Positions 9,490 to 31,081 of a stretch of 32,000 nt of DNA are shown here, in pieces; the first letter of the stretch is position 1, and each line of letters begins with the position of its first letter. Position numbers and translations under genes: made by a program. Under the pieces are notes generated by a model. It had not been told where the DNA came from, did no database searches, and worked only from the letters and a program-made list of their open reading frames with translations. Source of the DNA: Pandoraea communis (GTDB lineage: Bacteria; Pseudomonadota; Gammaproteobacteria; Burkholderiales; Burkholderiaceae). The stretch covers positions 778,957 through 810,956 of the forward strand of contig NZ_CABPSJ010000003.1 of the NCBI RefSeq assembly GCF_902459745.1, written 5' to 3'.

Positions 9490-10977
<1,488 letters not shown>

Positions 10978-11676: not shown

Positions 11677-13234
11677 CTTCGGCTCGCAAGTCACCCAGCT
11701 CATCGGCCGCCGCGTTCGCGAAGCGCACGTCTACTGCGAGATCCACCCGAACGACGTTTCGGACGAGTTCATTCGCGAATTCAATCCGAAGGCCGTCATT
11801 CTGTCGGGTAGCCACGCGAGCACATATGAGGATCAGGATCTGCGTGCCCCGCAGGCGGTGTGGGATCTGGGTGTGCCGGTGCTGGGCATTTGCTACGGCA
11901 TGTTCGCGATGACGGTCCAACTGGGCGGTCAGGTCGAGGCGAGCAACCATCGCGAGTTCGGTTACGCCGAGGTGCGTGCGCATGCGCATACGCCGCTGCT
12001 CGAGGGCCTTGAGGATTTCCGTACGACCGAAGGTCACGGCATGCTCAAGGTGTGGATGAGTCACGGTGACAAGGTCACGCAATTGCCGCCGGGCTTTGCG
12101 CTGATGGCGTCGACGCCGAGCTGCCCGATTGCCGGTATGGCCGACGTGGTGCGCAACTACTACGCAGTGCAGTTCCACCCGGAAGTCACGCATACGGTGA
12201 AGGGCCGCGAGTTGCTCGAGCGTTTCGTGCTGCAGATTGCCGGCGCGAAGCCGGACTGGATCATGCGCGACCACATCGAGGAAGCCGTCAAGGCGATTCG
12301 CGAGCAAGTGGGCGACGAAGAAGTGATTCTGGGGCTGTCGGGCGGTGTGGATTCGAGCGTTGCGGCGGCGCTGATTCATCGCGCTATTGGTGATCAACTG
12401 ACGTGTGTGTTTGTCGATCACGGTCTGCTGCGCCTGAATGAAGGCAAGATGGTGATGGAGATGTTCCAGGGGCGTCTGCACGCGAAGGTCGTGCATGTCG
12501 ACGCCGCTGAGCAGTTCATGGGCCATCTGACGGGGGTGACCGATCCGGAGCAGAAGCGCAAGATCATCGGCCGCGAATTTGTCGAAGTGTTCCAGGCCGA
12601 AGCGAAGAAGCTGAAGAACGCGAAGTGGCTGGCGCAGGGCACGATTTATCCGGACGTGATCGAGTCGGGTGGCGCGAAGACGAAGAAGGCGACGACGATC
12701 AAGAGCCACCATAACGTTGGTGGCCTGCCGGAGACGCTGGGGCTGAAGCTGCTTGAGCCGCTGCGCGACCTGTTCAAGGACGAAGTGCGCGAGCTGGGCG
12801 TGGCGCTGGGCCTGCCGCATGACATGGTCTATCGTCACCCGTTCCCGGGGCCGGGGCTGGGCGTACGGATTCTGGGTGAAGTGAAGCGCGACTACGCTGA
12901 CCTGCTGCGTCGCGCCGATGCCATCTTCATTGAAGAGTTGCGCAACACGGTCGAGCCGAACAGCGGTAAGACGTGGTACGAACTGACGAGCCAGGCGTTC
13001 GCGGTATTCCTGCCGGTCAAGAGCGTGGGTGTGATGGGCGATGGCCGCACGTATGAATGGGTCGTGGCACTGCGCGCCGTGCAGACGCAAGACTTCATGA
13101 CGGCGCACTGGGCACACTTGCCGCATGACCTGCTTGGCAAGGTCTCGAACCGCATCATCAACGAGGTTCGTGGTTTGAACCGCGTTGTTTATGACATCTC
13201 GGGCAAGCCACCGGCAACGATTGAGTGGGAGTGA
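11651..13234 (+). CDS. guaA: GMP synthase (glutamine-hydrolysing)
   Basis: The start at [13 protein letters not shown] gives 527 aa. It has a GATase domain (GICYG), an ATP-PPase loop (SGGVDSS) and the C-terminal IEWE. The longer ORF start at 11459 is rejected because its N-terminal extension is Arg/Pro-rich and non-homologous. Confidence 0.95.
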
Positions 13235-13452
13235 TCTAGCATCGTCTCACACCGTTTCAGGCAGTATCAAAAACTTCACGAAACCCAAGCGGGATAAGGA
13301 GTTAGTGGCTCAGGCAGTCTCAGCCGCTATCACCCGATCTCGCTCATTTTGACGGGCGTCGTGACGGTATCGTTGGAAGCGGTCGAAAACGCCGCTTCCG
13401 GTACCGACAGGGGGTCTGACGGTATCAAGCGGCAAATCAGAGTGAGGCTGAT

Positions 13453-14790
13453 TTGCTAACTGATCGTGAGTTGGGTGCCCTGACGCCCAAGGAAAAAATG
13501 TTCAAGGTGAGCGACCGCGACGGCTTGTACGTGGCGGTGCTCCCAACTGGTACCCGGGCCTTTCGGTACGACTACCGTCTCAACGGCCGGCGCGAGACCT
13601 TGGCGATCGGGCGCTACGACCCGGCATGCAAGGTGACCCGCGATCTCGATGCGCTTGAGTACGGGATGGGTATTTCACTGCGTGAGGCGCGCACGCTTCT
13701 GGACCGTGCTCGACGCGACGTGGAGCGCGGCGTGTCGCCATCGCGCGCCAAGGCTGAGAAGCGTGCCGCAGCGGCCGAGGCGCTGACGTTCGGCGGCTGG
13801 GCGCAGACCTACTTTAAGCACAAGGCGGACCCCAAGAGCGGGGCGGAGCAGTTAGCGGACAGCACGCTCGAGCTGCGGCAATCGACGTATCGGCGAGTAA
13901 TCGAGCCCGAACTGGGCCGCCTGAAGCTTGAGGAGGTGACGCCGCAGCGCCTGATGCGTCTGTGCCTTGACGCGAAGGAGAAGCGCGGCCCGGCTGTTGG
14001 CGTCCACGTTCGGGAAGTGGTGCACGCGGTGTTCCGCCACGCACAGGGCAGTGGCATTTCGATCCCGAACCCGGCGGACAGCGTCCGCGCCAGCGCAATC
14101 GCCACCTTCGAGCCGCGTGACCGCGCATTGTCTCCGGCCGAGATCCGAAAGTTCTTCACTGCTCTGGAGCAGGTTGCGGCCGCACCAACGCTGCGCCTGG
14201 CGCTGAAGTTCGTTCTGCTGACCGGTGTGCGCAAGAGCGAGTTCATCGACGCGACGTGGAGCGAGGTCGATTTCGACACGGAGCGCTGGACGATCCCCGG
14301 TTCGCGCATGAAGGCCGGCAAAGCCCATGTGGTCCCGTTGAGCGAACAGGCGCTGGACATTCTGACGGCGTTTCGTTCGTGCTTTGGAGCAAGCCAATAC
14401 TTGCATCCAGGGCGCTATGACCACGATTTGCCCATCAGCAACGCTACGCTGAATCGCATCATCGACGCTGCGGTCGAGCGCATCCAGAAAGACGATCCCG
14501 AGTTCCAGACTTTCGGCGTCCACGACTTGCGGCGAACGTTTTCTACCGGCCTGAACCGGGCGAAGTTCGATGAGCGGTGGGTTGAAATGTCGCTCGCTCA
14601 CGCGCCGCGAAACAGGATCGCAGCCGTGTACAACGTGAACCGCTACCTGTCGGAGCGGAAAATCATGCTGCAGTGCTGGGCGGACACGATCGACTGCTGG
14701 ATGCGCGGCGAGTCGGCACGCGAGCTGATCGCCGATGCCAAGCGGCGGGCCGCAGAGGTGCACGAGGATGATCTCGACGACGATCTGTAG
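13453..14790 (+). CDS. int: P4-type tyrosine integrase (N-terminal DUF4102-like arm-binding domain)
   Basis: The N-terminus LTDRELGAL..K..KVSDRDGLYVAVLPTGTRAFRYDYRLNGRR is the typical P4-integrase N-domain. The C-terminal catalytic residues sit in HDLRRTF and LAH...VY contexts. The TTG start is required to include the conserved LTD motif. Confidence 0.9.
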   Translation: MLTDRELGALTPKEKMFKVSDRDGLYVAVLPTGTRAFRYDYRLNGRRETLAIGRYDPACKVTRDLDALEYGMGISLREARTLLDRARRDVERGVSPSRAKAEKRAAAAEALTFGGWAQTYFKHKADPKSGAEQLADSTLELRQSTYRRVIEPELGRLKLEEVTPQRLMRLCLDAKEKRGPAVGVHVREVVHAVFRHAQGSGISIPNPADSVRASAIATFEPRDRALSPAEIRKFFTALEQVAAAPTLRLALKFVLLTGVRKSEFIDATWSEVDFDTERWTIPGSRMKAGKAHVVPLSEQALDILTAFRSCFGASQYLHPGRYDHDLPISNATLNRIIDAAVERIQKDDPEFQTFGVHDLRRTFSTGLNRAKFDERWVEMSLAHAPRNRIAAVYNVNRYLSERKIMLQCWADTIDCWMRGESARELIADAKRRAAEVHEDDLDDDL

Positions 14791-14806
14791 GGTCGACTGC
14801 TAGGAG

Positions 14807-14831
14807 CACGCCCCGCCTAGAGCGGGGCGTG
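14807..14831 (+). terminator. GC-rich hairpin after int (possible terminator)
   Basis: Perfect 10-bp stem (cacgccccgc pairing with gcggggcgtg) with a 5-nt loop, 17 nt after the int stop. There is no clear T-run. Confidence 0.4.
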
Positions 14832-14987
14832 TGGCAGACTTCCTCAACTTGGTTGAATAAAATCTCTTTAAAAATCATTGGGTTACTCTAATCATTGCCT
14901 CGTGTCGTATCACGTAGTCTCGTCGTGACATTACCGTGTAGGCATTGGCTGGCGCACTGGCGCGGCCGCCACACGAGGACTAACGCA

Positions 14988-15197
14988 ATGAACCCGCCCA
15001 TTCGAATTCTGCGGCTGAAGGATGTTCAGCAACGAATCGGAATCTCCCGCCCAACTGTTTATCGGTGGCTGGACAAGGATCCGTCTTTCCCGAAGCCGGT
15101 CTCACTTGGTTCGCACTCGATTGGTTTTGTTGAGAGCGAGATCGACGCCTGGCTTGAGGCCCGCGTCCGGGCGTCCCGTGGAGAGGTGGCCGCATGA
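14988..15197 (+). CDS. alpA: AlpA-family (MerR-like HTH) phage/island transcriptional regulator
   Basis: MNPPIRILRLKDVQQRIGISRPTVYRWL...FPKPV.LG..S.GF.ESEIDAWL is the AlpA/Xis-like pattern. I chose the start at 14988 inside the longer ORF. Confidence 0.85.
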   Translation: MNPPIRILRLKDVQQRIGISRPTVYRWLDKDPSFPKPVSLGSHSIGFVESEIDAWLEARVRASRGEVAA

Positions 15198-15640
15198 GCC
15201 GCCTTCCTCCTGAACTCGATCTGCGACTGACCAATGAGGCGTCGTCAACTGCTGAGGTGCGGCGTTGCATGGCTGTGCACGGCGCGGTGCTCGAATCCTT
15301 TGGTTGGCACGCAGTCCCGGTCCAGAACGGGTTCCATCGCTGGGTCGCATTCAACCGCCAGAACGAAGGGGCTATCGCGGACGCGCATCGGGACACCGGG
15401 CTGATCGCGATTCGGCGTGAGGGCGAGTCGCCTGTTTTCAGCCTCAACATCCCATCGCTGCTAGTTGTTGCATGCCAATTCGCTCAGGAAGGGTTTGGCT
15501 GCATTCCTGATGGGGAGGTCTTGGCTGTTCTGCTGGCCTGGCTCCTTGTCGATGCCTGCGGACTGCCAATGAGCGACGAGCTCATCACGGCTCTCGCGAT
15601 TCAAAACGCAAGAATCGCAGCGGAGTACTTCCCGCAATGA
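15194..15640 (+). CDS. Hypothetical protein
   Basis: 148-aa ORF whose ATG overlaps the alpA stop (ATGA at 15194-15197), suggesting translational coupling. No family recognised. Confidence 0.5.
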   Translation: MSRLPPELDLRLTNEASSTAEVRRCMAVHGAVLESFGWHAVPVQNGFHRWVAFNRQNEGAIADAHRDTGLIAIRREGESPVFSLNIPSLLVVACQFAQEGFGCIPDGEVLAVLLAWLLVDACGLPMSDELITALAIQNARIAAEYFPQ

Positions 15641-15853
15641 CCGCACTCAACCAGCCGCGCCGCACATTGACGACTGTGGCGCCTGGCTACCGCAGCGATC
15701 AGCGCCAAACCCGTCGCAATGCCTGCCCAGGCCCGCAGTACTAAACCAAGGGCCAAAAAAATGCCGACACGCGCTTGTACCGGCATCAATGGCCCAAACA
15801 ATTCGAAGCTCATGAGTCTTCATTCTGGTATCACGACCGCCGAGACTGGCGGT

Positions 15854-18754
15854 ATGTCGCAAATTGGTGACGTCGAGCGTTACATCAGCGCCATGTTTGC
15901 ACTCGATCCGGGCATGGAACGCGAGTCGTGGGTGCGCGTGGCAATGGCGGCCAAGGCCAGCGGCATAGACCTTGAGCACTTCGACCGTTGGAGTTCAGCC
16001 GCAGACAACTACGACGCCAAGGATTGCGCGGCCACGTGGAGGTCAATCAGCGCAGATGGTCGCGTTGGCCCAGGAACGTTGATCCAGATGGCGCAGGAAG
16101 CTGGCTGGCGTTACGAAGGCCAGCGCGTTCAGCTAAGCGCAACCGAGATCGCCCGGCGCGATGCCGAGCGTGCCCAGCGTCGAGAACGCGAGGAGGGGCA
16201 GCGTGTCGCACAGCATGAAGCTGCGGCCGCGCATGCCACGAGCATCTGGAACGGCGCGAAGTCCGCCGCGAAGCCGACCGATGTCACACACGCATACCAG
16301 CGTGCCAAGGGCATTTGCTCGAACGGCGCGCGCACCGGCGACTGGCCGGTGATCGACCCGGACACAGGCGAGATCCGCTACACCGTCAAGAACGCGCTTC
16401 TCCTGCAGATCCGCGACTTCGATAAGCGCATCCACTCGGTACAAGCGATCATCGAGCGCACCGGCGAGAACGGGCGGACAGAGTTCACCAAACTCTTTCT
16501 CCCCGGCGGCGCCAAAAAGGGCCATTTCTTCCCAATTGGACAGCCGCGTCAGGGTGCTGATGGCCGCCGCACGTTCATTGTCGCCGAAGGGTTTGCGACC
16601 GCTGGGAGCGTTCATGAGGCGACCGGGCATGGCTGCGTCGTGGCGTTCGACGCGGGCAATCTCGCGCCGGTGTGTCGCGAGATCCGAGCACGGTTTCCGG
16701 GTGCGCACATCCTGATTGTCGGCGATCGCGATGCCGAGGATCACGCGCAGTCTACGGGCTCGCGCAAGGCTGCTGATGCGGCCCTCGAGGTCGGCGCATG
16801 CCTGTTCGTTCCCGAGTGGACAGGCGCTGGGCGCGATGCGAACGACATCTTTGTGCGCGGTTTTCAGCACGAGTGGGTCGATGCGGACGGCAATCACCAG
16901 ACGGTCAATATCGCCGGGCCAGACCATCTTCAAGCCTGCGTTGAGCTGGCGCTTGCGGCCGGGCCTCTGCAATCCGAACAGTTCAAGCAGACGATGGACG
17001 GTCTCGCGCGCGTATCCGCCTCACAGGCCGACGACGCGGGCAGCGCTGAGGATGCGGTGGGTGCTATCCAGCAGGCGAGTCGGGCTGACGACGTCGATCC
17101 CGAGGACGATACCGCACCCGGCGAGAACCCGTTCGCGAACAATCGGCATTTCCGCGTGCTTGGCGTCGACGGGGACGCGTACTTCTTTTTCCGGAAAGGC
17201 CGGAGAAACCAGATCCTGACCATCCGCACGAGCGGTCTCAGCAAGAACGCACTGATGTCTCTCGCGCCGCTCAACTGGTGGGAGGGGATCATGCAGGGAA
17301 ACTTCGACAAGGACGCCGCCGTTGGCTTCCTGATGGAGGCGGCCGAGGCGGCGGGCATCTATGACCCTACGTTCACGCGCGGGCGCGGAGCGTGGTGGGA
17401 CGGCGACCGAATGGTGGTGCACCTGGGCGATCGACTGTTGGTCGACGGTACATCCACAGAACTGGGCGCGATTCGCTCGGAGTTCCTCTATCAAGGCGGC
17501 CGCAAGATCGTGGCGCCTTCGGATACGCTGCTCAGCGCGGCCGATGGCACTTGGCTGCTCGAAATGGCGAACTCGTTTCGCTGGGCGAAGTCGGCATCGG
17601 CGCCGCTCCTATGCGGTTGGTTGCTGCTGAGCCCCTTGTGCGGTGCACTGCGTTGGCGTCCGCACGCGTGGATCACGGGCGGCGCCGGGTCTGGCAAGAC
17701 GACGATCCTGAATGAGTCTGTGCGCCCGCTGATCCCGGCGGGCATGGACGTGTTTGCCAACGGCGACAGCACGGAGGCGGGCCTCCGCCAGACCCTGCGC
17801 AGCGACGCGAGGCCGATCCTGATCGACGAGAGCGAGTCCGACACGGAAGCGGCGGCGACCAAGATGCAGCGCATTCTCGTCATGATCCGCCAGTCGTCGA
17901 GCGACACCGGCGCGCAAACCTATCGAGGCACCGTCGGCGGTGAGGCGCAGGCATTCCAAGTGCGTTCGATGGCGCTGCTTTCCAGCATCGGCGTCGCGCT
18001 CGACCGACAGCAGGACCTTGAGCGCGTCACCGTGCTCGCGCTGCGGCCGAAGCGGGAAGGCGAGGCGACCGACGTGAAGAACTGGCCGGCCATCCGCGCC
18101 GGGCTCAACAAAATTGCGAGGGACAAGACGCTGAGCGCGCGGCTGTTCCGCCGTTCGATCGACATGGCGCCCGTGATTATGGAGTCGATCGACGTGTTCA
18201 CGGAGGCGGCAGCCACGTTCTTCGGAACTGCGCGCGAGGGCGACCAGATCGGCGCGCTCCTGGCCGGCGCGTGGTGCCTCGTCAACGATCGATTGCCGAC
18301 ACCGGACGAGGCGTTGGCGGAGATTAAGCGGCACGACTGGCACGATTACCAGGAAGGCAAGGCCGAGGAGCAGGACGATCTGATTGCGACGCTCATGGGG
18401 CGCCCGATCACTCGGCAAGGTGGGGTTCGGACCTCGGTTGGTAAGTTGGTCGCATGCGCGGCAGGATATGCGGTCGAGGAACTGGGCATCCTGCCGACCG
18501 TAGCCGACAGCGAGCTGCACAACTTCGGCATGAAAGTGAAGGATGGTTTTGTTTGGTTCCATCCGAAGAACGCGGAGCTCCTCAAGCTGATGCGGGAAAC
18601 GAAGTTCTCGTCAGACCTTCGAGGGCGGCTGAAGCGAATTCAGGGCGCCAGCACCAAAGACGGCATCCGCATCGGTGAGGCTGCTACCAGCGGGATCCTG
18701 ATCCCATTGAGCGCCGCGCTGAGCCATCGGGATAGCGACGACCAGACGTTCTAG
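15854..18754 (+). CDS. Island replication protein: PriCT-2-like + Toprim primase + P-loop (helicase-type) NTPase
   Basis: PriCT-like segment (WVRVAMAAKASGIDLEHFDRWS, about 15866-16094). Toprim segment (FIVAEGFATA ... LIVGDRDAED, about 16571-16829). Walker A GGAGSGKTT (17678-17704) and Walker B ILIDESE. The start is uncertain, with alternatives at 15719 and 15812. Confidence 0.8.
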   Translation: MSQIGDVERYISAMFALDPGMERESWVRVAMAAKASGIDLEHFDRWSSAADNYDAKDCAATWRSISADGRVGPGTLIQMAQEAGWRYEGQRVQLSATEIARRDAERAQRREREEGQRVAQHEAAAAHATSIWNGAKSAAKPTDVTHAYQRAKGICSNGARTGDWPVIDPDTGEIRYTVKNALLLQIRDFDKRIHSVQAIIERTGENGRTEFTKLFLPGGAKKGHFFPIGQPRQGADGRRTFIVAEGFATAGSVHEATGHGCVVAFDAGNLAPVCREIRARFPGAHILIVGDRDAEDHAQSTGSRKAADAALEVGACLFVPEWTGAGRDANDIFVRGFQHEWVDADGNHQTVNIAGPDHLQACVELALAAGPLQSEQFKQTMDGLARVSASQADDAGSAEDAVGAIQQASRADDVDPEDDTAPGENPFANNRHFRVLGVDGDAYFFFRKGRRNQILTIRTSGLSKNALMSLAPLNWWEGIMQGNFDKDAAVGFLMEAAEAAGIYDPTFTRGRGAWWDGDRMVVHLGDRLLVDGTSTELGAIRSEFLYQGGRKIVAPSDTLLSAADGTWLLEMANSFRWAKSASAPLLCGWLLLSPLCGALRWRPHAWITGGAGSGKTTILNESVRPLIPAGMDVFANGDSTEAGLRQTLRSDARPILIDESESDTEAAATKMQRILVMIRQSSSDTGAQTYRGTVGGEAQAFQVRSMALLSSIGVALDRQQDLERVTVLALRPKREGEATDVKNWPAIRAGLNKIARDKTLSARLFRRSIDMAPVIMESIDVFTEAAATFFGTAREGDQIGALLAGAWCLVNDRLPTPDEALAEIKRHDWHDYQEGKAEEQDDLIATLMGRPITRQGGVRTSVGKLVACAAGYAVEELGILPTVADSELHNFGMKVKDGFVWFHPKNAELLKLMRETKFSSDLRGRLKRIQGASTKDGIRIGEAATSGILIPLSAALSHRDSDDQTF

Positions 18755-18758
18755 CCGG

Positions 18759-21700
18759 TTAGCCGTCGGCTGTGGCGTCCGGGTCTGGTTGCATTATCGG
18801 CCAAGGCTTGCCTGACGGCAGGTCGGGGTGACGCGGCTCGCCTTCCGGCATTCCGTGTTCATCCCGAATCTCGTCGATCTGACGCAGCCGGCGCGCAGCG
18901 GCGTCAGTGGGACCACCGTCCGTGGTCAGTGCAAGCAGCTTTTGGCGCAAGCTATCGGCAGGGACCGGAACAACGTTGTATGCGCCTGCCCAATCGCTGA
19001 CGGGCTCATGCTCAGTAACAAGCCGTTCAATGGTTTGCCAGCTAGCAAAGGGCCGATTTAGCTCTTGTTCGAATTTTACGAGTAACAGCAAACCGTCGTT
19101 GTCGGGAGCTTCTGCGACCGCGCGGGTCAGCAGTGCCAGCCCGGGAGTGGTCGGGCCGGCATTCAAGAGGCCGTACAAATGGGAGCGTAGGTCCGGGTGC
19201 GCTTCGATCTGGCTGCCGAGTTCCCGCGCTAGGTGCCAGTCGTTCCCCACTCGCTCGAAAGCCCCGGCGGCGGTCAGGTCAATGATACGACGCGCTGAAG
19301 ATGGTGTGCCGAGCCTCAAAACTGCCGCGCGCCACCGCTCGTTCAAGTAAAAACGCGGGTCTTCCTCGGCGAGCTTGAACAAGACCTGTTCGGCTTCGTC
19401 CGATGGAGCATTGGCAAGAACCCCGACCATTTCCTCCAAGAAGCGAGGCTCGCGCTGCGTGGGCGGCATGCCGCGCACGACAGCTAGCGCCCCGGTTGGA
19501 TGGCTTACGAACGGCAGAAGGCGCAGCCACAACTTCAATTCGTAGCCATCGCTCTGCGTCAATATCCATGGTTCGGTCTTCGCCGCCTCGAGCGTCTCGG
19601 AGATTCCGTCGGAAACAACCTTGATGTCGATCTCCTCGCCCGAAAGAACGAGGTTCAGAAGCAGAGTGGGACGCGCGCGCCTCGGTGCGAGGGCAATGAG
19701 CTTCTGGATCGTGCTGTCGCGCTGGCCGTGCGGAAGCCGTACAGCGGCAATGCCAAGCGCGACCGCGAGTGCTTTCTGTTCGTTTGTCGCGCCATCCGCA
19801 GTTAGGGGTTCGACCGCGGCGAAGATTGCTTCGGCTTCCGCAGAAGTTGCTTGAGGATCGACGGCACGCGCCCCGCGCTTCTCCTCTACGCCCGAGAAGT
19901 CCACTCCGAACATAACGCGCTTATCTTTCGGCGGCTCGTTTGCGGCGCGCCATTGGTCGGCGAGCACCTGCGCGGCGAGTTCGCCGAAGTGCTGGTCCGC
20001 CAGATATTCCTGCATCATGGCGGCGGTCTCTGGCGTTTTGATTGCCGAGAAGGCCCGCTGGTACTCGTGCGTCATGGGCTGGCGAGCTTCGTTCAAGGCG
20101 TCGCCTTGCCGCCAACCGGCAGCCTCCGCCTGCTCGCGGTAAGCGCGGAAGCGCCGCAGATTGTCGTCCAGTAGCCGTTTCAAGATAGGCAGCAGGTCCA
20201 CGGACGGAGCGTGGCTCGCAAGCGTGCCGATGCTGGCCTTTTGCCAGCGCTCCGCGTCGTCCGAGGCAAGCATCCGGTTGCCCCAGTCTTCGACGAGGCC
20301 CCGTATGGACGCCAGCGCGGCAGCGTCGAACGGTCTGCCGCGTTCGGTTTCGCCATCGGGATGTCGCGAGAGAAGTTCGGCCAAGCGCGTCATCTGCTCG
20401 TTGTCCGCCTGCGCCGACCGCGCTAGTACGGCGGCAACGAGACTCGTGCCGGGCACGTGCGCGATGCGGTTTTGTAGCCCAACGTAAAGCTCACTGGCGG
20501 CTTGGTCGAACTTGCCATCAGCGCGCACGCGCGCTCCTGTGTCGAGCAATGCGTCAACCATGCGGCCCACGGCGATCGGCCCGAGTACCGACGCGGCGGC
20601 CTCTGCACGGGCATCGTGGCGGCCAGGGTCGGAAAGCGCCAGATCGACTAGTGCGTCGTCTTCCAGAGCGAATCCAGCAGACGCTAGAAGGTCATCGGCG
20701 CCGTAGAACAACGGATGGCCCGCACGTACGCGCACCAGCAGGCCGTCCGCGATCGCGCCCAAATAGCGGTTGCGCGCCTCATAGATCAATTGCACCCCCG
20801 CATCCTGGGGCTGGTCGATCTCCATCGTGCTGACAATATCTCTCAACTCGGCGCTTCGGTCCTCGCGGCCTTGCGCGTCCACGATCCCGCGCAGGCGATC
20901 ATGAGCTGATGTGCCATTCGCCGCCTGCCGCTCGCGCGTCGCCGCGACGCCTTTTCTTACTGGCTCATCGTCAACTTCATCGATGAGGTCTCTGCGGACA
21001 ACCAGGTCGAAGGTCTTGTCGCTCGCGTTGTGCAGTACTTCTGCTACGTGGCGGTCCGCCCGCCGAAACGAGAGCGCGTCGACGACGGATGCCTGTACTT
21101 CAGGATCGGGATCGTTCTTCGCAATGGCGCTCGCGAGATCGAGGCCATCCATCCCGCTGCGCGAGGCCATTTCGCTGAGCAGCACGGTCCGGAGGTGCGG
21201 CGACAAAGCCTTGATCTTGTTCTCGGCGTCGTTTCCCAGGATCGAGGGTCTAAAACGCCTGCAATTGCGCAACGCCTTGAGGCTGATCTGATCATCTTGA
21301 TTGGTGATCAGCGGCCAAACTGCATCGAGGAATTCTGAGCGACCAGACGTGAGCATGAAGCGAACGGCGCGATCGACTGTTCCGGGTGCGTGCCAGCGCG
21401 CCACGAGTCCTTTAATGGTCTTGGCGATCTGCGACCACACTTCTTCCGTGGAGCGGAAGATCATCTCGGCGGCCAGGATCGGATCGACCTCAAATGCGGC
21501 GACGATCGCCTTGCCGCACGCGGCCCGCTGGTCCGCATCGCCGCGCGCCAGACGCTCGACTGCAAAGAGGATGGGTTCCTCCCATGCCGGGAGATTGAAG
21601 ACTTCTGCCTTCAATGTCTCGCGCCCGCTGGGATCGTCGACTTCGGCGATGATCCGGCGCTCGACCGAATGAGACGCGTACCATTCCTGAAACTGCTGGT

Positions 21701-23192
21701 GCTGAAATGAATATCCCGGTGTATCGCCGGCGCGCATTAGCATGTGGTTGCCGACAAGCACATTGAGTACAGCGTCGGGCTGCGGCTTGATCGTGATCTG
21801 TCCGTCCTCGGCCAGCATGTTCTCCGTCTCAGAGATCGATCGCCGTGCGTGTCTGTCGGCGATGGTGCTCGCCGTTCGGGTGGCGAAGACGGCGAGACCG
21901 TCGAGGTACTCCTGCTGAAATCCTCGCGCGACGGCGTAAAGGGCTTCCGCGTGGCTAGCCTCCTCCTCATGCGCGGCCACGAAGTGCCGTAGCACTTCCT
22001 CCTTGGTCGTCGGGAATGGCGCGTTATCCGGAAGCGAGAGCAGGGCGGTCAGATAGAGCGGGATTGTCACGAGCTCACGCACGCCGGCCGTGCGCCATGC
22101 CTGGTCGACGAACTTCGCGCCCCCGTCGCCGCGCATCGAAACGGCGATCTGCATTTGCTGCGCTTCGCTGAGGGGCAGAAGATCGACGCGCGTCCCGCCG
22201 AAAGGAACGTCGAGCGCTTGCCGGCGGGTCGAGACGATCAGGCCGAGTTCGGGCAATTGCGCCTTGAGGGCCGTGATCTGCACCCGCGCGCGATTCCGCG
22301 CTTGCGCGTCCAGTTCGTTCCATCCATCGAGAAGCAGCACAACGCCGGGCTGCGCGGCGGCCTTTCGATAGTCGTCTTCCGAGATCCCACGGAACGCTGG
22401 GCGCTTGAGAATCGAGTCCAGAATCGTCGCGTCTTCTGTGGCCCAATCGCCGAGCGGAACGACGAGCGGCGTCCCTTTGCCGTTCGCCAGAACGCCTTCG
22501 GCGATCTGGAAGAGCGTAGTGGTCTTTCCCATGCCGGGCGGTGCGACAAGAATCAGATCGTCCAGCGACGTGGCCGCACCTGCAAGCGCGCTTGTCGTCA
22601 CAGGCTCGTCGAAGTCGGCAACCTTCAACGTGAGCGGGACCGACGTGGACGGCCATTTCGCGGTTTGCCTGAAAACTCGCAGATCGGCTTCTGCGGCGGC
22701 GCGTACGCGCTCAGCCAATTGCGGGTCGGCGACATCTGCGTGCCCGGGCAATGCTTCGTGCCGCAGCACACGCCGCCACGACTCGTTTTCCGCTTGCCTC
22801 TTCCATTGGTGCAGCAGCGCCACGGTGAATTGCGGATCGGGGGAGTCGATCGCCTTGCCGTGATCGCGGCACATCCAGATGCCGTTCTTTGCGGAGGAGC
22901 GCTCCTCTCGCGACATCGTCGCGTCGTAACGCGGGCCGCCAGGAGCGGCCGCGCAGATGTGGGCCGCCGTCCCGATGTTGATCTCGCCTTCGCCGTCAGA
23001 CGTTGCTCCAACCGTGTCCGCGCGACATGTCGGAAACGAGCAACGCCAGCCCGCGCGTTTCGCGATCTGCAGCACCGTATCCTTATTGAAGTCGTCTCGA
23101 TTTCTCTTTGCCACCTGACGGACACTCGATTTCGGCTTACGGTTCGGAGCGAACGAGCCGAGTACATAGTCTGGCCGCCTCCCGCTGCGCAA
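18759..23192 (-). CDS. HNH nuclease + NACHT/STAND NTPase + helical-repeat (HEAT/TPR-like) protein; candidate antiviral STAND (Avs/bNACHT-like)
   Basis: 1477-aa ORF. The N-terminal HNH pattern is C51-x4-C56 ... AAH78IC ... N103GIWMC108RDH111. Walker A is APPGMGK223TT and Walker B is VVLLLD289GWNE293LD (NACHT-style). About 1100 aa of alpha-helical repeats follow. The start is a TTG at 23192 (alternative GTG at codon 27), so the 5' end is uncertain. Confidence 0.8.
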   Translation of the reverse strand: MRSGRRPDYVLGSFAPNRKPKSSVRQVAKRNRDDFNKDTVLQIAKRAGWRCSFPTCRADTVGATSDGEGEINIGTAAHICAAAPGGPRYDATMSREERSSAKNGIWMCRDHGKAIDSPDPQFTVALLHQWKRQAENESWRRVLRHEALPGHADVADPQLAERVRAAAEADLRVFRQTAKWPSTSVPLTLKVADFDEPVTTSALAGAATSLDDLILVAPPGMGKTTTLFQIAEGVLANGKGTPLVVPLGDWATEDATILDSILKRPAFRGISEDDYRKAAAQPGVVLLLDGWNELDAQARNRARVQITALKAQLPELGLIVSTRRQALDVPFGGTRVDLLPLSEAQQMQIAVSMRGDGGAKFVDQAWRTAGVRELVTIPLYLTALLSLPDNAPFPTTKEEVLRHFVAAHEEEASHAEALYAVARGFQQEYLDGLAVFATRTASTIADRHARRSISETENMLAEDGQITIKPQPDAVLNVLVGNHMLMRAGDTPGYSFQHQQFQEWYASHSVERRIIAEVDDPSGRETLKAEVFNLPAWEEPILFAVERLARGDADQRAACGKAIVAAFEVDPILAAEMIFRSTEEVWSQIAKTIKGLVARWHAPGTVDRAVRFMLTSGRSEFLDAVWPLITNQDDQISLKALRNCRRFRPSILGNDAENKIKALSPHLRTVLLSEMASRSGMDGLDLASAIAKNDPDPEVQASVVDALSFRRADRHVAEVLHNASDKTFDLVVRRDLIDEVDDEPVRKGVAATRERQAANGTSAHDRLRGIVDAQGREDRSAELRDIVSTMEIDQPQDAGVQLIYEARNRYLGAIADGLLVRVRAGHPLFYGADDLLASAGFALEDDALVDLALSDPGRHDARAEAAASVLGPIAVGRMVDALLDTGARVRADGKFDQAASELYVGLQNRIAHVPGTSLVAAVLARSAQADNEQMTRLAELLSRHPDGETERGRPFDAAALASIRGLVEDWGNRMLASDDAERWQKASIGTLASHAPSVDLLPILKRLLDDNLRRFRAYREQAEAAGWRQGDALNEARQPMTHEYQRAFSAIKTPETAAMMQEYLADQHFGELAAQVLADQWRAANEPPKDKRVMFGVDFSGVEEKRGARAVDPQATSAEAEAIFAAVEPLTADGATNEQKALAVALGIAAVRLPHGQRDSTIQKLIALAPRRARPTLLLNLVLSGEEIDIKVVSDGISETLEAAKTEPWILTQSDGYELKLWLRLLPFVSHPTGALAVVRGMPPTQREPRFLEEMVGVLANAPSDEAEQVLFKLAEEDPRFYLNERWRAAVLRLGTPSSARRIIDLTAAGAFERVGNDWHLARELGSQIEAHPDLRSHLYGLLNAGPTTPGLALLTRAVAEAPDNDGLLLLVKFEQELNRPFASWQTIERLVTEHEPVSDWAGAYNVVPVPADSLRQKLLALTTDGGPTDAAARRLRQIDEIRDEHGMPEGEPRHPDLPSGKPWPIMQPDPDATADG

Positions 23193-23221: not shown

Positions 23222-23487
23222 GGGATGTTGTTGGGAATTCTCGAATCCCAACACAAACCCAACGCTCTAAATACCTGATTTATAAGAAATGTTGGGGATG
23301 TTGGGATGTTGGGATTTTTAACAACAACAAAATTATAAAGTGAAGGAAGCCACCCCGAACTCACACAAGGGTCCGGAGCGGGGATCTCCTTTCATATATC
23401 TATCTCAATCCCAACAATCCCAACAACCCAACAACCTAAGCCAGACAAGGGTATGCGGGTGTTGGGAATGTTGGGATGTTGGGAATT
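23222..23487. repeat. Iteron-like field of 8-bp (A)TGTTGGG(A) repeats in five clusters of alternating orientation
   Basis: Cluster A 23222-23238 (+). Cluster B 23244-23263 (-); A and B together form an imperfect palindrome, gttgggaattc/gaatcccaac. Cluster C 23289-23316 (+, 3 tandem units). Cluster D 23407-23436 (-, 3 or more units). Cluster E 23457-23487 (+, 3 units). Clusters C and D flank a 90-bp spacer with AT-rich ends. Confidence 0.85.
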
Positions 23488-24417: not shown

Positions 24418-24438
24418 CCTTTGATGGAAGGGCTGAGC

Positions 24439-24741
24439 ATGGACACGCTGGCGAAACGGCTGAGAGAGGCTCGCACGGAGGCCGGGTTGTCCCAAGAGCG
24501 ACTTGGGGTTCTGGCCGGGATTGACGAGATGTCCGCGAGCGCTCGAATGAACCAGTACGAGCGAGGGAAGCACGTTCCAGATTTTGGCACTGTGGTTCGC
24601 ATTTCAGCAGCATTGAAGCTGCCTCCGGCGTATTTTTATGCCGTGACGGATGCGGAAGCGAATCTGCTGCGGAAGTTTCATCGGATGACTAAGGCACAAC
24701 AGGGCAAAGTCACTGCTCTGGTTGACAGCCTTGCCCCCTAA
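24439..24741 (+). CDS. XRE-family helix-turn-helix transcriptional regulator
   Basis: MDTLAKRLREARTEAGLSQERLGVLAGI......NQYERGKHVP is the classic Cro/CI-type HTH. The ATG at 24439 is preceded by GGAAGGG; an alternative ATG is at 24424. Confidence 0.8.
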   Translation: MDTLAKRLREARTEAGLSQERLGVLAGIDEMSASARMNQYERGKHVPDFGTVVRISAALKLPPAYFYAVTDAEANLLRKFHRMTKAQQGKVTALVDSLAP

Positions 24742-24838
24742 GCAAGGTGAAGGCATCAACGTCCGGCACTGCAGTAATTGCGGGGTTGTTGTCGTGAATC
24801 GAAACTATAGGCATCCCTGTTTTGCTGTTTTGGAGCCT

Positions 24839-25438
24839 ATGCCACGTCCATCCGATCCACGCCGCGACCAAGCAGTCGAAACTATGCGCCGTCTATGCGC
24901 CGAGCACGGCCTCAAGGAAGGCTGCCGGCTGGCTCGCGAGCAATTTTCGGACATTCCGGATGGCACGTGGGGGCGCTGGCGCGTCCAGGCGCTCGGCCGG
25001 GCTCCAGAGCGGGAGGAGCTCGAACGTGATGCGCGCGCCAACATGGCGGCTGAGGTCCGCGAGAACATCCCGGCCGTGGCGGAGCTCGTTCCTGCCGCTG
25101 AGGCCCTGCCGGCTCAGCGTCGAGCGCTGGACTTTTGGCGGATGCTTGACGAGCTCGACGAGGATGCTCGGCTGCTGCGCGAGTTTGCGACCACGACGGG
25201 GCTCGACGGCAAGCGGAAGGTCAAGGTGCCGTTTGCACTGCGCGATGCTCACCGCATGCGATGCGACTTGATCCGCTTGGCCCTGCAGCACGCTGAGGTG
25301 GCTTGGAGCACGGAACGTGCTGCGCGCTTCCACGATGCCATCCTCCAGGAAGTCTCAGCCGAGTCCCCGGAGCTTGCCGGCCGGATCATTGCGAGGCTCA
25401 AGCGCGTGGCAAGCGAGGCGGAGCAACGTGGGTTCTGA
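24839..25438 (+). CDS. Hypothetical protein (helical, E/R/A-rich)
   Basis: The ATG at 24839 is preceded by TGGAG and lies inside the longer 24722 ORF. It is co-directional with the XRE gene. No family recognised. Confidence 0.5.
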   Translation: MPRPSDPRRDQAVETMRRLCAEHGLKEGCRLAREQFSDIPDGTWGRWRVQALGRAPEREELERDARANMAAEVRENIPAVAELVPAAEALPAQRRALDFWRMLDELDEDARLLREFATTTGLDGKRKVKVPFALRDAHRMRCDLIRLALQHAEVAWSTERAARFHDAILQEVSAESPELAGRIIARLKRVASEAEQRGF

Positions 25439-25451
25439 TGCGAGAGCGAGC

Positions 25452-25709
25452 ATGGATGATTTGGGTCGGTATTTCTGGGCGCTGACGGATCACGTCTGTC
25501 GCGAGTGCTTCGTTCGCGTCGTGGCCCGTCCGGGCGACGATGACGATCAGGTTTTTCGCTGCAGCAACTGCGGCTCGGAAGCTCAAGGTAGCGACGAACG
25601 CGTGATTTGCGCCTGTGGCCTGCCTGGCGTTGAATGCCGGCCGAACGACAATCCGACGCCGGCGGATCCCGGCGAGATCATCGCGGTCGCGCCGGGACGC
25701 GCCCCCTAG
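25452..25709 (+). CDS. Small hypothetical protein with a CxxC...CxxC zinc-ribbon-like motif
   Basis: 85 aa starting at MDDLGRY, containing VCRECF and RCSNCG pairs. It begins 13 nt after the previous ORF's stop. Confidence 0.45.
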   Translation: MDDLGRYFWALTDHVCRECFVRVVARPGDDDDQVFRCSNCGSEAQGSDERVICACGLPGVECRPNDNPTPADPGEIIAVAPGRAP

Positions 25710-26098: not shown

Positions 26099-26679
26099 GA
26101 CCCCGAGAACGGCACCTAGGACTGCAATTGCAAGCGTAATGCCCTGTACGAGATTGGTATTAATGACGGCCCCCGTTTTGTTTTATGTCCGGTGGAATCT
26201 AACTCCGTGACGTTCTACCACAAATTGCCTTGGTGCTTATCCGGCACGTGATCAGTCTTTAGATGGTATCCCCATCAAGGGCCGGACGACTCCGCCGTGC
26301 CTTATCTCCGGTAATCGCGCGTGCTTTCCTCTGCCTATCAATGTTGTAAGTTAACCGCTTGATTCATCCCCGCGTATGTCGCAGATCTGTGTGGGTACGG
26401 TGGACTTCGGATCACTTCGGGAAAGCGGAGCCGGAGAGAAAAATGGGCACGAGAGAGTGGAAATGGGGCAATTTGGGTGACACCCCGGAACCTCGAAGTC
26501 CGCAGGAGCTCGTGTGTACCCACCTTAGCTCTCCAAGGACGATGTTTGCGTCGAGGATCAGACTAATCTGAAACAAGGACACCAATGCCGATAGATTTTT
26601 ATTCCGTTGACGAACTCCCGCAGCCAGACAAGCTCGTCTGACCTAATGGCATCCCCGAGTGACTTTTGACTTCTCCATC

Positions 26680-28137
26680 TTACTGGCACACGGGGCCGCG
26701 TGAGAGCGCACTCGGCTTCCGCAAATTTCCCTGGATGATCAGTACGCAGACCTGAACACCATTTTCCAGGGATTGAAGACCCACCAACTGCGCGGGGTCA
26801 CGCGGCGGGCCATTCTTTGGGCTGCAATCCAGCACGCAGAGCACTGCAGTCTTTTTACCCTTCGCCACCGCATAGGATGCTGTTTGATTAGTAAAGCGCC
26901 TGCCATCCTCTAGAGCGAAAAGTGTCGATTTCTCAACCTTCAACTCAATAGGGATTCCACGGAACGATAGATCGGTGGTTCCGCCCGCTGCGTTGGCATG
27001 TTCGTCCAGTTCGATCCCAATGGATGGGCTGCGTCGCAATGCAGCACGAACATCCTGTTGGAACTCAGCTTCAGATCGTGTACCCGGAAACAGCGCGTCT
27101 TGAACCGAACTGCCAGCAAGATTGAACAGCGCGGCCAGGATTGTTAGCAGGTCAAGCAACTCCGGCTGCGCAATACCCGGCACTCTACGTAATGCTTGAC
27201 GAAACTCGATGAGGCGCCTGTCCAATGCAGGATAGCCGCACCAGGTACGCGACGGATCTGTGCCATCAACTAGCAGCGTCCGATGTCCCACAATCGCAAC
27301 CGGTTGCTCCGACTTGGGTGGTAGAAACTCGGCCGCATATTTGAATTCGAACGGCCTCGCTTGGAGACCTTGCGACACCTTCAAAATGGCGCGACCTCGC
27401 TGATGTAAGACGTACGGTGGATCACCAACCGGACGGGAAAAACGAAAGCTTGGAAACTCGTATGTTGAAGCTGGCTCCACAGAAACTGGTGTAAGTTGTA
27501 ATTCACTATGGTCCTTTGGCCATCTCGTGACGCGGACTTCCAATTCCAGATCGTGGACCTCTCCAGGCGTAAGCTGGTGGGTGTGCTGGGCGTCGATCAA
27601 GTCGATCTGAAACTTCAGAAATGCCACCGTGAGCGGAAGCGGTTCAGCCCCAGTCTTCTCGTCGAAGTGCTGGCCGTGCATCTTGCTAGTAAAGGGGATG
27701 TCTTGGGCAAACATGCCTAGCGGCAGCGGTACAGCACCGACAGCATTGAGAAGCTTTACGGCGTCGTCCAGGCTAGATACTTCAGGCAATGCTTTACTGG
27801 TTTGGACCAGACTGGCAGCCGCCGCCTGACTCTCATATTCCTTCAGCCAAAGTTGGTAGCGTGCCTTCGCGCTTCGTAAAAAGCGGTCAGCGTCTGGGAG
27901 CGCCGTCAAAATGGCATCGTGCCATTGTGCTAGAGTCGCCGAAATTCGCACCAGTCCTGCAAATGCAGCGTATGCGACCGCGGCGACTGGATTAGCAAAT
28001 GACGCCGAAATCGAGTCCAGCTCGCCGGCCAATGCACTCAGATCGTCCGTGTGTGTCGTCCCTGGGAACCCCAGCAACGCTTCCACAGCGTTCAGGCGCG
28101 GCGAACGCGCGTCGGGGCGAACTAGATTTTGTCTCAT
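26680..28137 (-). CDS. Hypothetical protein with C-terminal RecB/Cas4-type PD-(D/E)xK nuclease motifs
   Basis: 485 aa. The motif series is E356/E358 (SEAEFQQD), D389 (GGTTDLSF), E398-x-K400 (IPIELKV) and Q418-x3-Y422 (QTASY), spanning about 26728-27075. The N-terminal helical and central beta-rich regions are unassigned. The start overlaps the upstream gene's stop (ATGA at 28134-28137). Confidence 0.7.
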   Translation of the reverse strand: MRQNLVRPDARSPRLNAVEALLGFPGTTHTDDLSALAGELDSISASFANPVAAVAYAAFAGLVRISATLAQWHDAILTALPDADRFLRSAKARYQLWLKEYESQAAAASLVQTSKALPEVSSLDDAVKLLNAVGAVPLPLGMFAQDIPFTSKMHGQHFDEKTGAEPLPLTVAFLKFQIDLIDAQHTHQLTPGEVHDLELEVRVTRWPKDHSELQLTPVSVEPASTYEFPSFRFSRPVGDPPYVLHQRGRAILKVSQGLQARPFEFKYAAEFLPPKSEQPVAIVGHRTLLVDGTDPSRTWCGYPALDRRLIEFRQALRRVPGIAQPELLDLLTILAALFNLAGSSVQDALFPGTRSEAEFQQDVRAALRRSPSIGIELDEHANAAGGTTDLSFRGIPIELKVEKSTLFALEDGRRFTNQTASYAVAKGKKTAVLCVLDCSPKNGPPRDPAQLVGLQSLENGVQVCVLIIQGNLRKPSALSRGPVCQ

Positions 28138-30680
28138 TCATCACCTCTGCCGCGTTTCGCGCCTTGAAAGATCTGCCGCCATTGGCTAGCACATTTGAGA
28201 GCATCCGCATGGTTTTCTGCCGCTAGGTGTCGTTCGAACTCTATCTCAAGCACCGACAACTGCGCGTATTGCTTACGCACCAGCATCCGCGTTGTGTCAG
28301 GTAGTACTCTATGTGAATGGCTTGCAATCTTCGCGGCAACGTCCCACGCACCGACTACGCTGAGAACCTCAATGCAGGCTGCGGACAGAACCCAATCATC
28401 GGGGCGTTGCTCGCACAAGGTTACTAGGCTCGCCTGCATGCCGAGCAAATCGCCTTTAGGAAGTTCACGTAGTAACGATACCAATTGATCGTCATAGGTT
28501 TCATGATGCTCCTCCGACTGCAAGAGCCTCAGAAGCAGATCGGGAAATCCCTTTATGGGTACGAGTCGCGTCAACATCCACGAGTGGCTGTTTCGTAGTA
28601 CGATCGCTACGTCGACCTTCATCAATACTGCAACAAAGACGGGGCCCCATACACCAGCAAAGCGTGGTTTCTCATGCAGGCGGCCTACTAGCAGCTCTAT
28701 ACACGTCACAAGAAACGAATCATGTTCGCGGTCGCCTTGAGCATACGCCCAGAAAATCACCATCAACCTCTCGGTAATTCGATCTTCGTATTCCGCTGGA
28801 AAGGAAATGCGCTCGAGTGCCTCGACGGCAGACTGATGAACGCCGATGATCGGGTCCGACAACAGCAACAGAAATGCGTCATGTACAAGGGAAGGAAGGT
28901 CGGATACCCGCGAGTGACGTAATTCTCGCAATGCCTGTGCGGCGGCCATCCTCACCAACGCGGACTCCCCGACCATTGCGCCATAGAGAAACGGGAGCAC
29001 GGCATTCGTTGATGCCGCTGTGTGCATCAACGGCGGCAAGGCCTTGATGAGAGCGCTGCGGAACTGCTCTGGCCACTGTATGTCGCTAGCGATGAAATCA
29101 ATGAATTTCCCCGCAGCAGTGGTACTTTCAGTCGCGGCGCTACTCGCCCATTCCAGCATGGCAGAACGCAGACCAGCCAATTGCTGCCGTCTGTTGTGGC
29201 GGTCCATTTGCGCAAGGAAAGCGCTCGCTTCGTCGGAAGAAACCTGCGCCGGCGAATTAGTGATGTCCGTGAGAGCCTGATCCAACAACGCAGCCGTTCC
29301 CAGCAGGAGTTCCATTTGATCGCATGCGACCTGAGTAAGCTGCTCCGGAAAGTGCCGCAAGGCTTCGTGAGTCTCCTGCATCACATCGTGATTCTGCGTC
29401 GCTGCAACCCACGTCAAGAGGCGGCGTAGCGCTGTCCCGTAAGGCCTGAGATTGGAAATCACGTCGACAGATTCAAAGCGACTGCCTGGCAATCTCAGCA
29501 AAGTGGAGTAAACGCCGGCGATCCGCCCTTCGCCAGCGGAAGAAGCTCCTTGATAGTAATTTACGAGCAATGTGTCGACTTGCTGATCGTCTGCCAACAT
29601 GGCATAGACGAGCGCCCGCTCCAGTTCGTGCACGACTTCGCGCATTTCCGAGTCCGAGTCGATATCGACTAATGAATCGACTCGAGCGAGTTTTGCCGCA
29701 AGGCTGCGAACCAAACTCAATGGATAGGCATTGCCACGATACGCGAGCGGAATCGCTCTCGCCGCAGTCTCGACAATGAAACCCGAGTGACTAGCGACCA
29801 GACTATCTAACGCCTTTTCTGCCGCATCGGGAAATCTGGACACCAAAGCTTGCAGTGCCTTGGGGCGCTTCTCGGGTTCGGAAAAATAAAAGTCGCTACG
29901 CTGCGGTGCAGCCAGCAAGCACAAACTCTTGACGGCCGTTTGCACTTGAGATGCATCAACTAAGTCAAGGTGTGCCACCAGGACTTCCGCAGCAGTCTCG
30001 ATATTGCATTCCCTCGAGAGACATTGCATCGCGCAAGAAACTTGCCGCTTGTGGTCCTGGGATACTATCCGCAGACAGCTCAATGCCGTCTCGATCGCCC
30101 ACGACTCGTTCGACTCAATCAGATGGAAGAGGTGGTTGACAACGTCATCGACAAACACCTCCGGCGCGAGATGGGCAGTTGCAATGATCTTCTCGGACGC
30201 TGACTCCGTACGAGTTTGATCCAATGCCTGCAGGTCTTCAATCAAAGAAGCAACAGGTACTGCGGCACTGGCCTGCAGTGCAGAGCGCACTTTCTGGCGG
30301 GAATCGAATTCGTCGCGAAGCTTTTTTTCCTGCCGCTCTTGATCGGCGACCCTAGCAGCCACTTGCTGGTCTCGACGGCTCACGAGCTCCGCAATATTGG
30401 GGAAACGCAACGGTTGACGGACCGTGCAATTTACGCAATTTCGATCGTAGAATGCGAGCGCCGCCTCCTCGAGATGCCAAGTTGCGAACCCGTCAGCAGG
30501 GGCGTGGTCACAGGCCATTGAGTGATGGCCGATCGGGAATCCGGTAGCGGCCTCGATCATGCCAACACCACCGGTTTTTTTAATCCTCGCGTGGCCGCAC
30601 CAGTTCTGGATAAGAACCTTAACTTCCTGGTTGCGCTGGCCGACTTCTACGGTCCGCAAGTAATCCCGTTCGCTAACCAT
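28134..30680 (-). CDS. Large hypothetical protein: N-terminal Cys/His cluster + long alpha-helical (HEAT/ARM-like) repeat region, no NTPase motif
   Basis: 848-aa ORF. The Cys/His cluster is C28,H30,H52,H53,C56,H58,C82,C85 (about 30426-30599), followed by a short coiled-coil segment and then leucine/alanine-rich helical repeats. No GxxxxGK[ST] was found. GAGG lies about 10 nt upstream of the ATG. Confidence 0.7.
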   Translation of the reverse strand: MVSERDYLRTVEVGQRNQEVKVLIQNWCGHARIKKTGGVGMIEAATGFPIGHHSMACDHAPADGFATWHLEEAALAFYDRNCVNCTVRQPLRFPNIAELVSRRDQQVAARVADQERQEKKLRDEFDSRQKVRSALQASAAVPVASLIEDLQALDQTRTESASEKIIATAHLAPEVFVDDVVNHLFHLIESNESWAIETALSCLRIVSQDHKRQVSCAMQCLSRECNIETAAEVLVAHLDLVDASQVQTAVKSLCLLAAPQRSDFYFSEPEKRPKALQALVSRFPDAAEKALDSLVASHSGFIVETAARAIPLAYRGNAYPLSLVRSLAAKLARVDSLVDIDSDSEMREVVHELERALVYAMLADDQQVDTLLVNYYQGASSAGEGRIAGVYSTLLRLPGSRFESVDVISNLRPYGTALRRLLTWVAATQNHDVMQETHEALRHFPEQLTQVACDQMELLLGTAALLDQALTDITNSPAQVSSDEASAFLAQMDRHNRRQQLAGLRSAMLEWASSAATESTTAAGKFIDFIASDIQWPEQFRSALIKALPPLMHTAASTNAVLPFLYGAMVGESALVRMAAAQALRELRHSRVSDLPSLVHDAFLLLLSDPIIGVHQSAVEALERISFPAEYEDRITERLMVIFWAYAQGDREHDSFLVTCIELLVGRLHEKPRFAGVWGPVFVAVLMKVDVAIVLRNSHSWMLTRLVPIKGFPDLLLRLLQSEEHHETYDDQLVSLLRELPKGDLLGMQASLVTLCEQRPDDWVLSAACIEVLSVVGAWDVAAKIASHSHRVLPDTTRMLVRKQYAQLSVLEIEFERHLAAENHADALKCASQWRQIFQGAKRGRGDE

Positions 30681-31081
30681 GAGCTTAGAACCTCTGTTGT
30701 TTCAGGAGAATACAACTGCTGCAGTTCATTTTAATCGGTCGGCGCACCAAAACATGCAATGTCTGCTCCGGGGCGCGTTCAAACGGTCGCAACCGTCGCA
30801 AACTGGCCAGTTTTGGTCGTTCGACATGGACGGCCGGATCGTCGACAATCGCTACCTGACTTTCGTATTTCGCGTGTAATCATAGGCCAGGAGTGCTTAC
30901 GATCCCGGCAACAGTCCAAAAATCTCACGGACGCAGCCGGCAAGATGGTGTCCGGTATCAACGACGTCCGAGACGTGCTCCTGGCTACCTTTGGCCGTCG
31001 TGGCATGCGTGCCGCGGCCGATTGCACAAGGCTGTCATCGAGGGGCAGCGGCAGGACATTACCGACCTCTATAACGCGCGT

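Follow-up and report, generated by a model that had tools for sequence, protein, structure and literature searches.

Analysis of a 32,000-nt stretch of the Pandoraea communis genome (GCF_902459745.1, contig NZ_CABPSJ010000003.1, positions 778,957 to 810,956 of the forward strand; referred to below as the window) revealed a pair of minus-strand genes that very probably constitutes an Olokun anti-phage defense operon. The operon is carried as cargo of an integrase/AlpA/primase island downstream of guaA. The upstream gene, oloA, encodes a HEAT-like repeat protein, and the downstream gene, oloB, encodes a predicted nuclease of the PD-(D/E)xK type. An initial annotation of the window had presented the pair as an undescribed defense system outside any named family. 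This claim was not upheld: profile searches with the PADLOC models placed both proteins in Olokun, an already characterized system, and the annotation itself had named such a placement as evidence against its proposal. The gene pair is an already named system, detectable with a standard defense-annotation library, and is not new. The functional reading given in the annotation, a repeat scaffold combined with a PD-(D/E)xK nuclease effector on a mobile island and without a nucleoside triphosphatase (NTPase), was right. Homology to Olokun, conserved pairing of the two genes, protein architecture, conservation of the catalytic motif, and the mobile context were all observed in the present analysis.

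Organization of the oloAB operon

The operon and its flanking region comprise the following features.

28134..30680, minus strand: oloA, Olokun subunit A (848 aa, 94.2 kDa)
26680..28137, minus strand: oloB, Olokun subunit B (485 aa, 52.8 kDa)
28134..28137, minus strand: ATGA stop/start overlap of oloA and oloB (4 nt, read from the sequence)
30681..30900, minus strand: upstream noncoding region, presumed promoter (GAGG about 12 nt 5' of the oloA ATG)

Both open reading frames (ORFs) and their ATGA overlap, as initially annotated, were read directly from the sequence. At the junction, the 3' end of oloA (...GGT GAT GAA TGA) shares ATGA with the 5' end of oloB (ATG AGA CAA), which suggests that the two genes are translationally coupled. 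Abutting or overlapping junctions were likewise found in the homologous loci L001 to L007 and L011. A GAGG-type ribosome-binding site is located about 8 to 12 nt 5' of both the oloA and the oloB start, and the start codons are supported because homologues begin at the same methionines. Searches for sigma-70-like promoters and terminators gave nothing above shuffle expectation. In the approximately 580 bp 3' of oloB (26099-26679), no convincing ORF, Rfam family, or clear terminator was seen.

The guanine-plus-cytosine (GC) content of the operon is 0.553, compared to 0.612 in the left-hand core genes and 0.614 in the remaining island, in agreement with the lower GC content noted in the initial annotation. 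At third codon positions (GC3), the values are 0.56 to 0.60 for oloAB versus 0.72 to 0.78 for guaA, guaB, the primase gene, and the NACHT gene of the island.

Identification of the gene pair as Olokun

The 848-aa protein matched the PADLOC OloA model PDLC03925 with an E value of 1.4e-64 (217 bits) in a single stretch, in which aa 18-810 were aligned to positions 9-520 of 596. The 485-aa protein matched the OloB model PDLC03926 with an E value of 1.3e-56 (191 bits), again in a single stretch (aa 15-444, aligned to positions 12-455 of 556). The OloA model was matched by 27/27 diverse representatives of the OloA family, and the natural fusion proteins described below match the OloB model too.

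Searches of Pfam, NCBIfam, and PHROGs with both proteins and with their isolated domains returned nothing significant; the sole match was a sub-threshold HEAT repeat in OloA. The silence of these libraries explains why the 848-aa protein, which is 100% identical to PCO31110_02911 of P. communis, was deposited as hypothetical. Among the close homologues are proteins of Burkholderia (86%), Hydrogenophaga (74%), Cupriavidus (72%), and Variovorax (71%). In sequence and profile searches of the Protein Data Bank (PDB), neither OloB nor its nuclease domain found a relative, and OloA gave only weak matches, to designed HEAT repeats.

Conservation of the pair and natural OloA-OloB fusions

A homologue of OloA (30 to 74% identity) ends exactly at the OloB start in 7/7 genome loci retrieved with OloB. 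The intact oloA-oloB pair is present in L001 to L007 and in L011/L012, so that the synteny check proposed in the initial annotation came out in favor of a conserved pair, with OloA split by an insertion sequence (IS) in Ralstonia. In Lysobacter helvus, the pair is likewise adjacent and is located on an integrase/AlpA/DnaB-type island. Order, adjacency, and overlap of the two genes persist at identities as low as about 30%. No other gene of the window is conserved beside oloAB among the 12 loci, and therefore the pair has no third component.

In the Ralstonia solanacearum loci L008 (6242-9960) and L009 (CP022786/CP022784), the OloA homologue is split by the insertion of an IS3-family (rve) transposase. 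OloA aa 3-712 are followed by the IS at 8428-9578 and then by aa 724-834, and OloB is intact. Judged from the sequence, these copies of Olokun are likely inactivated. The split Olokun adjoins NERD, PoNi_C, and a VgrG gene. In L010, only the 3' end of the OloA gene remains, at the contig edge.

An exhaustive profile search yielded 1,033 cluster representatives of the OloA family (444 at E <= 1e-30), mostly of 840 to 860 aa. Ten representatives are natural single-chain fusions of OloA to OloB in operon order, with lengths of 1309 to 1360 aa; OloA occupies approximately residues 1-830 and OloB extends from about residue 850 to the end. The fusion proteins are P0298, P0328, P0335, P0344, P0345, P0349, P0367, P0377, P0387, and P0388. 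The shorter protein P0376 (1064 aa) resembles a truncated fusion of the same order. The existence of natural fusions supports a physical complex of OloA and OloB. The mass calculated for a 2:2 complex of the window proteins (subunits of 94.2 and 52.8 kDa) is 294 kDa.

OloA is a HEAT-like solenoid with an N-terminal Cys4 module

OloA consists of an N-terminal module of about 95 aa with a cluster of four cysteines (Cys4 module), a long helix, and a HEAT/adaptin-like alpha-solenoid (approximately aa 140-848). Structure prediction, as recommended in the initial annotation, gave for OloA a HEAT solenoid: the AlphaFold2 model, calculated with 29 homologues, is all-alpha, with a predicted local distance difference test (pLDDT) value of 85.7 and a continuous alpha-solenoid that spans residues ~100 to 848. 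A Foldseek search with this model revealed the HEAT-repeat scaffolds CAND1, karyopherins, SF3B1, PP2A-A, and AP2 adaptin. The first approximately 100 residues are modeled with low confidence (pLDDT of 50 to 70), yet they are the best-conserved part of the protein.

The Cys/His residues of this N-terminal region are C28, H30, H52, H53, C57, H59, C82, and C85. The cluster had been recognized in the initial annotation with two positions off by one (C56 and H58, which are C57 and H59), and only its four cysteines are conserved family-wide. C28, C57, C82, and C85 are invariant in the OloA alignments and are kept in 112 to 113 of the 113 full-length representatives (mutual identity of <=50%) obtained from the exhaustive profile search. 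H30 is kept in about 83%, and H52, H53, and H59 vary. The Cys4 cluster is probably a zinc-binding module, given this pattern of conserved cysteines.

The absence of a Walker A or enzymatic motif from the upstream protein, as initially annotated, was borne out by a motif scan and by Pfam. No Walker A motif was found in OloA or OloB, Pfam detected no enzymatic domain in either protein, and neither Pfam nor PADLOC revealed an NTPase domain in OloA.

OloB carries a predicted PD-(D/E)xK active site

The structural model of OloB (pLDDT of 84.3) shows three domains: aa 8-134 are helical, aa 170-291 form a beta-sandwich, and the C-terminal nuclease domain (aa ~300-480) is alpha/beta. The order of elements in the C-terminal domain is helix 356-376, strands 377-383, 387-392, and 395-402, helix 409-425, and strand 430-437. 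This predicted order corresponds to the alpha-beta-beta-beta-alpha-beta core that is canonical for PD-(D/E)xK enzymes, a fold that the initial annotation had anticipated for this region. The invariant residues occupy the expected places in the modeled core: E356 in helix 1, E379-H380 in strand 1, D389 in strand 2, E398-L-K400 in strand 3, and Q418xxxY422 in helix 2.

Comparison of 32 to 35 homologues revealed that E356, D389, E398, K400, Q418, and Y422 are invariant, in accordance with the motif series initially assigned to the protein; E358, which had been included in that series, is not invariant. Further invariant residues are Q360 and E379-H380. OloB bears a predicted PD-(D/E)xK active site. 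In a Foldseek search of full-length OloB against the PDB, the Ig-like middle domain dominated the matches, and the nuclease fold was not probed by this search.

The nuclease domain also resembles the C-terminal part of a Lamassu effector. Searched by itself, the C-terminal domain of OloB matched two kinds of PADLOC models, OloB and the C terminus of LmuA. OloB aa ~327-480 (26680-27160) aligned to positions 487-654 of 655 in the LmuA model PDLC03853 with E values of 3e-15 to 5e-15 (on the order of 1e-15). A profile search for LmuA-type relatives with the nuclease domain alone returned only fragments of OloB. In Lamassu, the effector domain is N-terminal; the C-terminal domain (CTD) serves for docking. 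The profile match suggests that the OloB nuclease domain and the CTDs of long LmuA proteins may share a common ancestry.

Published Olokun systems and a proposed mechanism

In the accessible text (PMC10121019), Olokun is credited to Millman et al. 2022; the 2022 bioRxiv version of that work does not yet use the name. The biochemistry described here is that given in the accessible part of a preprint on Pseudomonas Olokun (PfOlokun) (bioRxiv 10.1101/2025.07.10.664194). PfOlokun, composed of an adaptin-like OloA and a PD-(D/E)xK nuclease OloB, was purified as a 2:2 OloA-OloB complex of ~278 kDa in which both nuclease domains are predicted to lie side by side. In vitro, DNA of T7, SECphi17, and SPO1 was robustly degraded and E. 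coli genomic DNA was not; the complex nicked plasmid DNA, and 1 uM was the only concentration at which it was active. In plaque assays, each of the operons examined in the preprint gave protection against one phage or more. Olokun is omitted from the preprint's list of systems with a P-loop-homologous accessory protein, which agrees with the lack of a Walker A motif in the pair described here.

The following mechanism for the P. communis pair is inferred by analogy to the Pseudomonas homologue. The OloA solenoid would bind OloB at the N-terminal helical domain, and two OloA-OloB heterodimers would assemble into a 2:2 complex with two juxtaposed PD-(D/E)xK nuclease domains, an arrangement in which double-strand cleavage would be possible. 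Upon infection, the complex would preferentially cut phage DNA, and some structural or sequence feature would spare the DNA of the host. OloA, which is without an NTPase, would act as a scaffold, regulator, or sensor and not as an enzyme. Speculatively, the Cys4 module and the concave surface of the solenoid might recognize either a protein of the phage or some feature of DNA and thereby license the nuclease.

The accessible portion of the published Olokun text contains no mention of the OloA Cys4 cluster or of the middle beta-sandwich of OloB. It is conceivable, if somewhat doubtful, that two features are undescribed: the Cys4 module of OloA, which could be a sensing or DNA-binding element, and the homology of the OloB catalytic domain to the LmuA C terminus. 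If true, the latter would connect the effectors of Olokun and (long) Lamassu in evolution and would point to a PD-(D/E)xK fold as the origin of the LmuA docking domain.

Alternative interpretations

Several observations weigh against the Olokun assignment or its functional reading. The PADLOC alignments cover about 80 to 86% of the OloA and OloB model lengths and not the whole models. The coding strand of the region upstream of oloA (30681-30900) contains no consensus sigma-70 or promoter-like site. In the accessible part of the PfOlokun preprint, mutations in the OloB active site led to loss of the complex (bioRxiv 10.1101/2025.07.10.664194), and because of this loss, catalysis by the OloB site is not cleanly separated from complex formation.

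The pair could belong to a divergent sister family that shares only ancestry with Olokun and differs in trigger or target from the characterized E. coli and Pseudomonas systems, with, for example, plasmids or other mobile elements in place of phage. We regard this as unlikely; it keeps a small probability because the alignments span only part of the models (positions 9-520 of 596 for OloA and 12-455 of 556 for OloB). The OloA model has 596 positions compared to 848 residues in the window protein. On this model, 0/26 other diverse representatives outscore the window OloA, and therefore the seeds of the PADLOC model may lie on another branch. The Cys4 module is, in addition, absent from the accessible Olokun literature. 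However, each protein is matched in a single stretch that runs from near the N terminus across most of its length with more than 190 bits, and the pair agrees with the Olokun description in the accessible published text in its architecture, in its gene order, and in the mass calculated for the complex. The Cys4 module falls inside the PADLOC-aligned region and is near-universal in the OloA family; therefore, it is most likely present in the reference Olokun systems as well.

It is very improbable that the pair represents a Lamassu-like nuclease system, or another one that depends on an SMC/NTPase, with the ATPase encoded elsewhere and OloB as the LmuA-type effector. Such a reading would account for the match of the OloB C-terminal domain to LmuA PDLC03853, which was found in 17/17 family members. 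The LmuA match is confined to this domain of about 150 aa, however, and OloB is the best match by far. None of the ten neighboring ORFs matched LmuB/SMC or LmuC, and no conserved P-loop neighbor was found in the 12 loci. Instead of an ATPase, OloA is the obligatory and conserved partner, and in ten proteins the two are even joined in a single chain.

A role of the pair as a nuclease for housekeeping or for maintenance of the island (for example, as an addiction or exclusion module of the element) hardly deserves consideration: oloAB is always found on mobile islands and the Pseudomonas complex also nicks plasmid DNA in vitro (bioRxiv 10.1101/2025.07.10.664194), but in plaque assays, members of the family gave protection against phages according to the accessible part of the same preprint, Olokun is listed as a defense system from Millman 2022 in the accessible text (PMC10121019), and the pair moves between islands with different backbone genes.

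Island context of the Olokun operon

The Olokun operon is accompanied in the window by the following genes.

9517-10977: guaB (Pfam)
11459-13234: guaA (Pfam)
13453..14790, plus strand: tyrosine integrase, left end of the island (Pfam Phage_integrase, Arm-DNA-bind_3, Phage_int_M)
14895-15197: AlpA-like ORF (assigned from its own sequence; counterparts of 45% identity are called Phage_AlpA in L011/L012)
15719-18754: PriCT-2/Toprim primase with a P-loop region
18759-23192, minus strand: HNH-NACHT-NCAB2 protein (1477 aa)
24421-24741, plus strand: XRE/C-protein-like regulator (PADLOC Control_protein, E value of 1.8e-25)

The gene order of the island is integrase, AlpA-like ORF, primase, HNH-NACHT gene, XRE regulator, several unassigned ORFs, and oloBA. 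The gene calls at 13453-23192 agree with the initial placement of the pair in the cargo of an integrase/AlpA/primase island near an HNH-NACHT gene. The integrase gene starts about 220 bp past the guaA stop codon (13234-13453), and the island appears to be inserted downstream of guaA. Searches of the window gave no tRNA, att direct repeat, or Rfam family, and therefore the right end of the island is probably located beyond it. The island context together with the low GC3 indicates that oloAB is horizontally acquired island cargo.

The protein encoded at 18759-23192 has an N-terminal HNH-type endonuclease region (aa ~25-143), which matches the PADLOC PDC-M68A and CBASS endonuclease-effector models, a weak NACHT match (aa 215-350), and a C-terminal NCAB2 domain. 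These matches make it a candidate STAND defense gene, to which PADLOC assigns no named Avs type. Upstream of this gene, short (T)GTTGGGA(T/A) direct-repeat clusters at 23290-23317 and 23452-23487 look like iterons or operators. The XRE-type helix-turn-helix protein (24421-24741) resembles the control (C) proteins of restriction-modification systems. It is followed on the plus strand by overlapping ORFs at 24722-25438 (238 aa) and 25317-25709 (130 aa, Cys-rich), and the segment 24421-25709 may be another regulated cargo module.

With this assignment, an instance of Olokun joins the defense repertoire of a mobile island from Pandoraea/Burkholderiales, and two annotations as "hypothetical protein" are corrected. 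The Cys4 module, the OloB beta-sandwich, the natural fusions, and the family of 1,033 representatives provide concrete targets for mutagenesis and leave the classification unchanged. Beyond the assignment, the Cys4 module, the natural fusions, and the link to LmuA are of value as leads into a still poorly understood system.

Comparison with known defense systems

Lamassu, STAND/Avs, and helicase-nuclease pairs were considered as assignments and rejected, since the defining ATPase is absent. With respect to a partner helicase or ATPase of the Hachiman, Gabija, or Septu type, the pair gave no PADLOC match and contains no Walker A motif.

As in STAND/Avs systems, a large helical-repeat protein with a possible surface for protein or DNA recognition is coupled to a nuclease effector. 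OloA differs in that it has no NACHT, NB-ARC, or P-loop NTPase domain and does not qualify as a STAND protein, and, apart from the rare fusions, the putative sensor and the effector are two different chains. The NACHT gene of the island (18759-23192) is a distinct, nonconserved neighbor of oloAB.

OloB shares with Cap4 and with RecB/Cas4-type nucleases the D...ExK...QxxxY series on a predicted alpha-beta-beta-beta-alpha-beta core. In contrast to these enzymes, it has no significant match to a Pfam nuclease family and no SAVED or other nucleotide-sensor domain. It also differs from Cas4 in the lack of Fe-S cluster cysteines, and the pair has no helicase partner.

The relationship to Lamassu includes the C-terminal domain of OloB, about 150 aa of which show detectable homology to the C-terminal region of one LmuA model, and the general arrangement of a nuclease-bearing effector held by a non-nuclease partner. 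Unlike Lamassu, the pair lacks the LmuB SMC ATPase and LmuC, the partner is a HEAT solenoid, and the LmuA-homologous region of OloB itself carries the catalytic D-ExK motif.

The window copy differs from described Olokun systems in the clade of its host, Burkholderiales. It agrees with them in the two-gene operon with oloA upstream of oloB, in the strong matches of both proteins to the PADLOC Olokun models, and in the combination of an adaptin/HEAT-like OloA without an NTPase with an OloB that joins a helical domain at the N terminus to a PD-(D/E)xK domain. The expected mass of 294 kDa approximates the measured value of 278 kDa given for PfOlokun in the accessible part of the preprint, and the location on a mobile defense island is likewise shared with Olokun.

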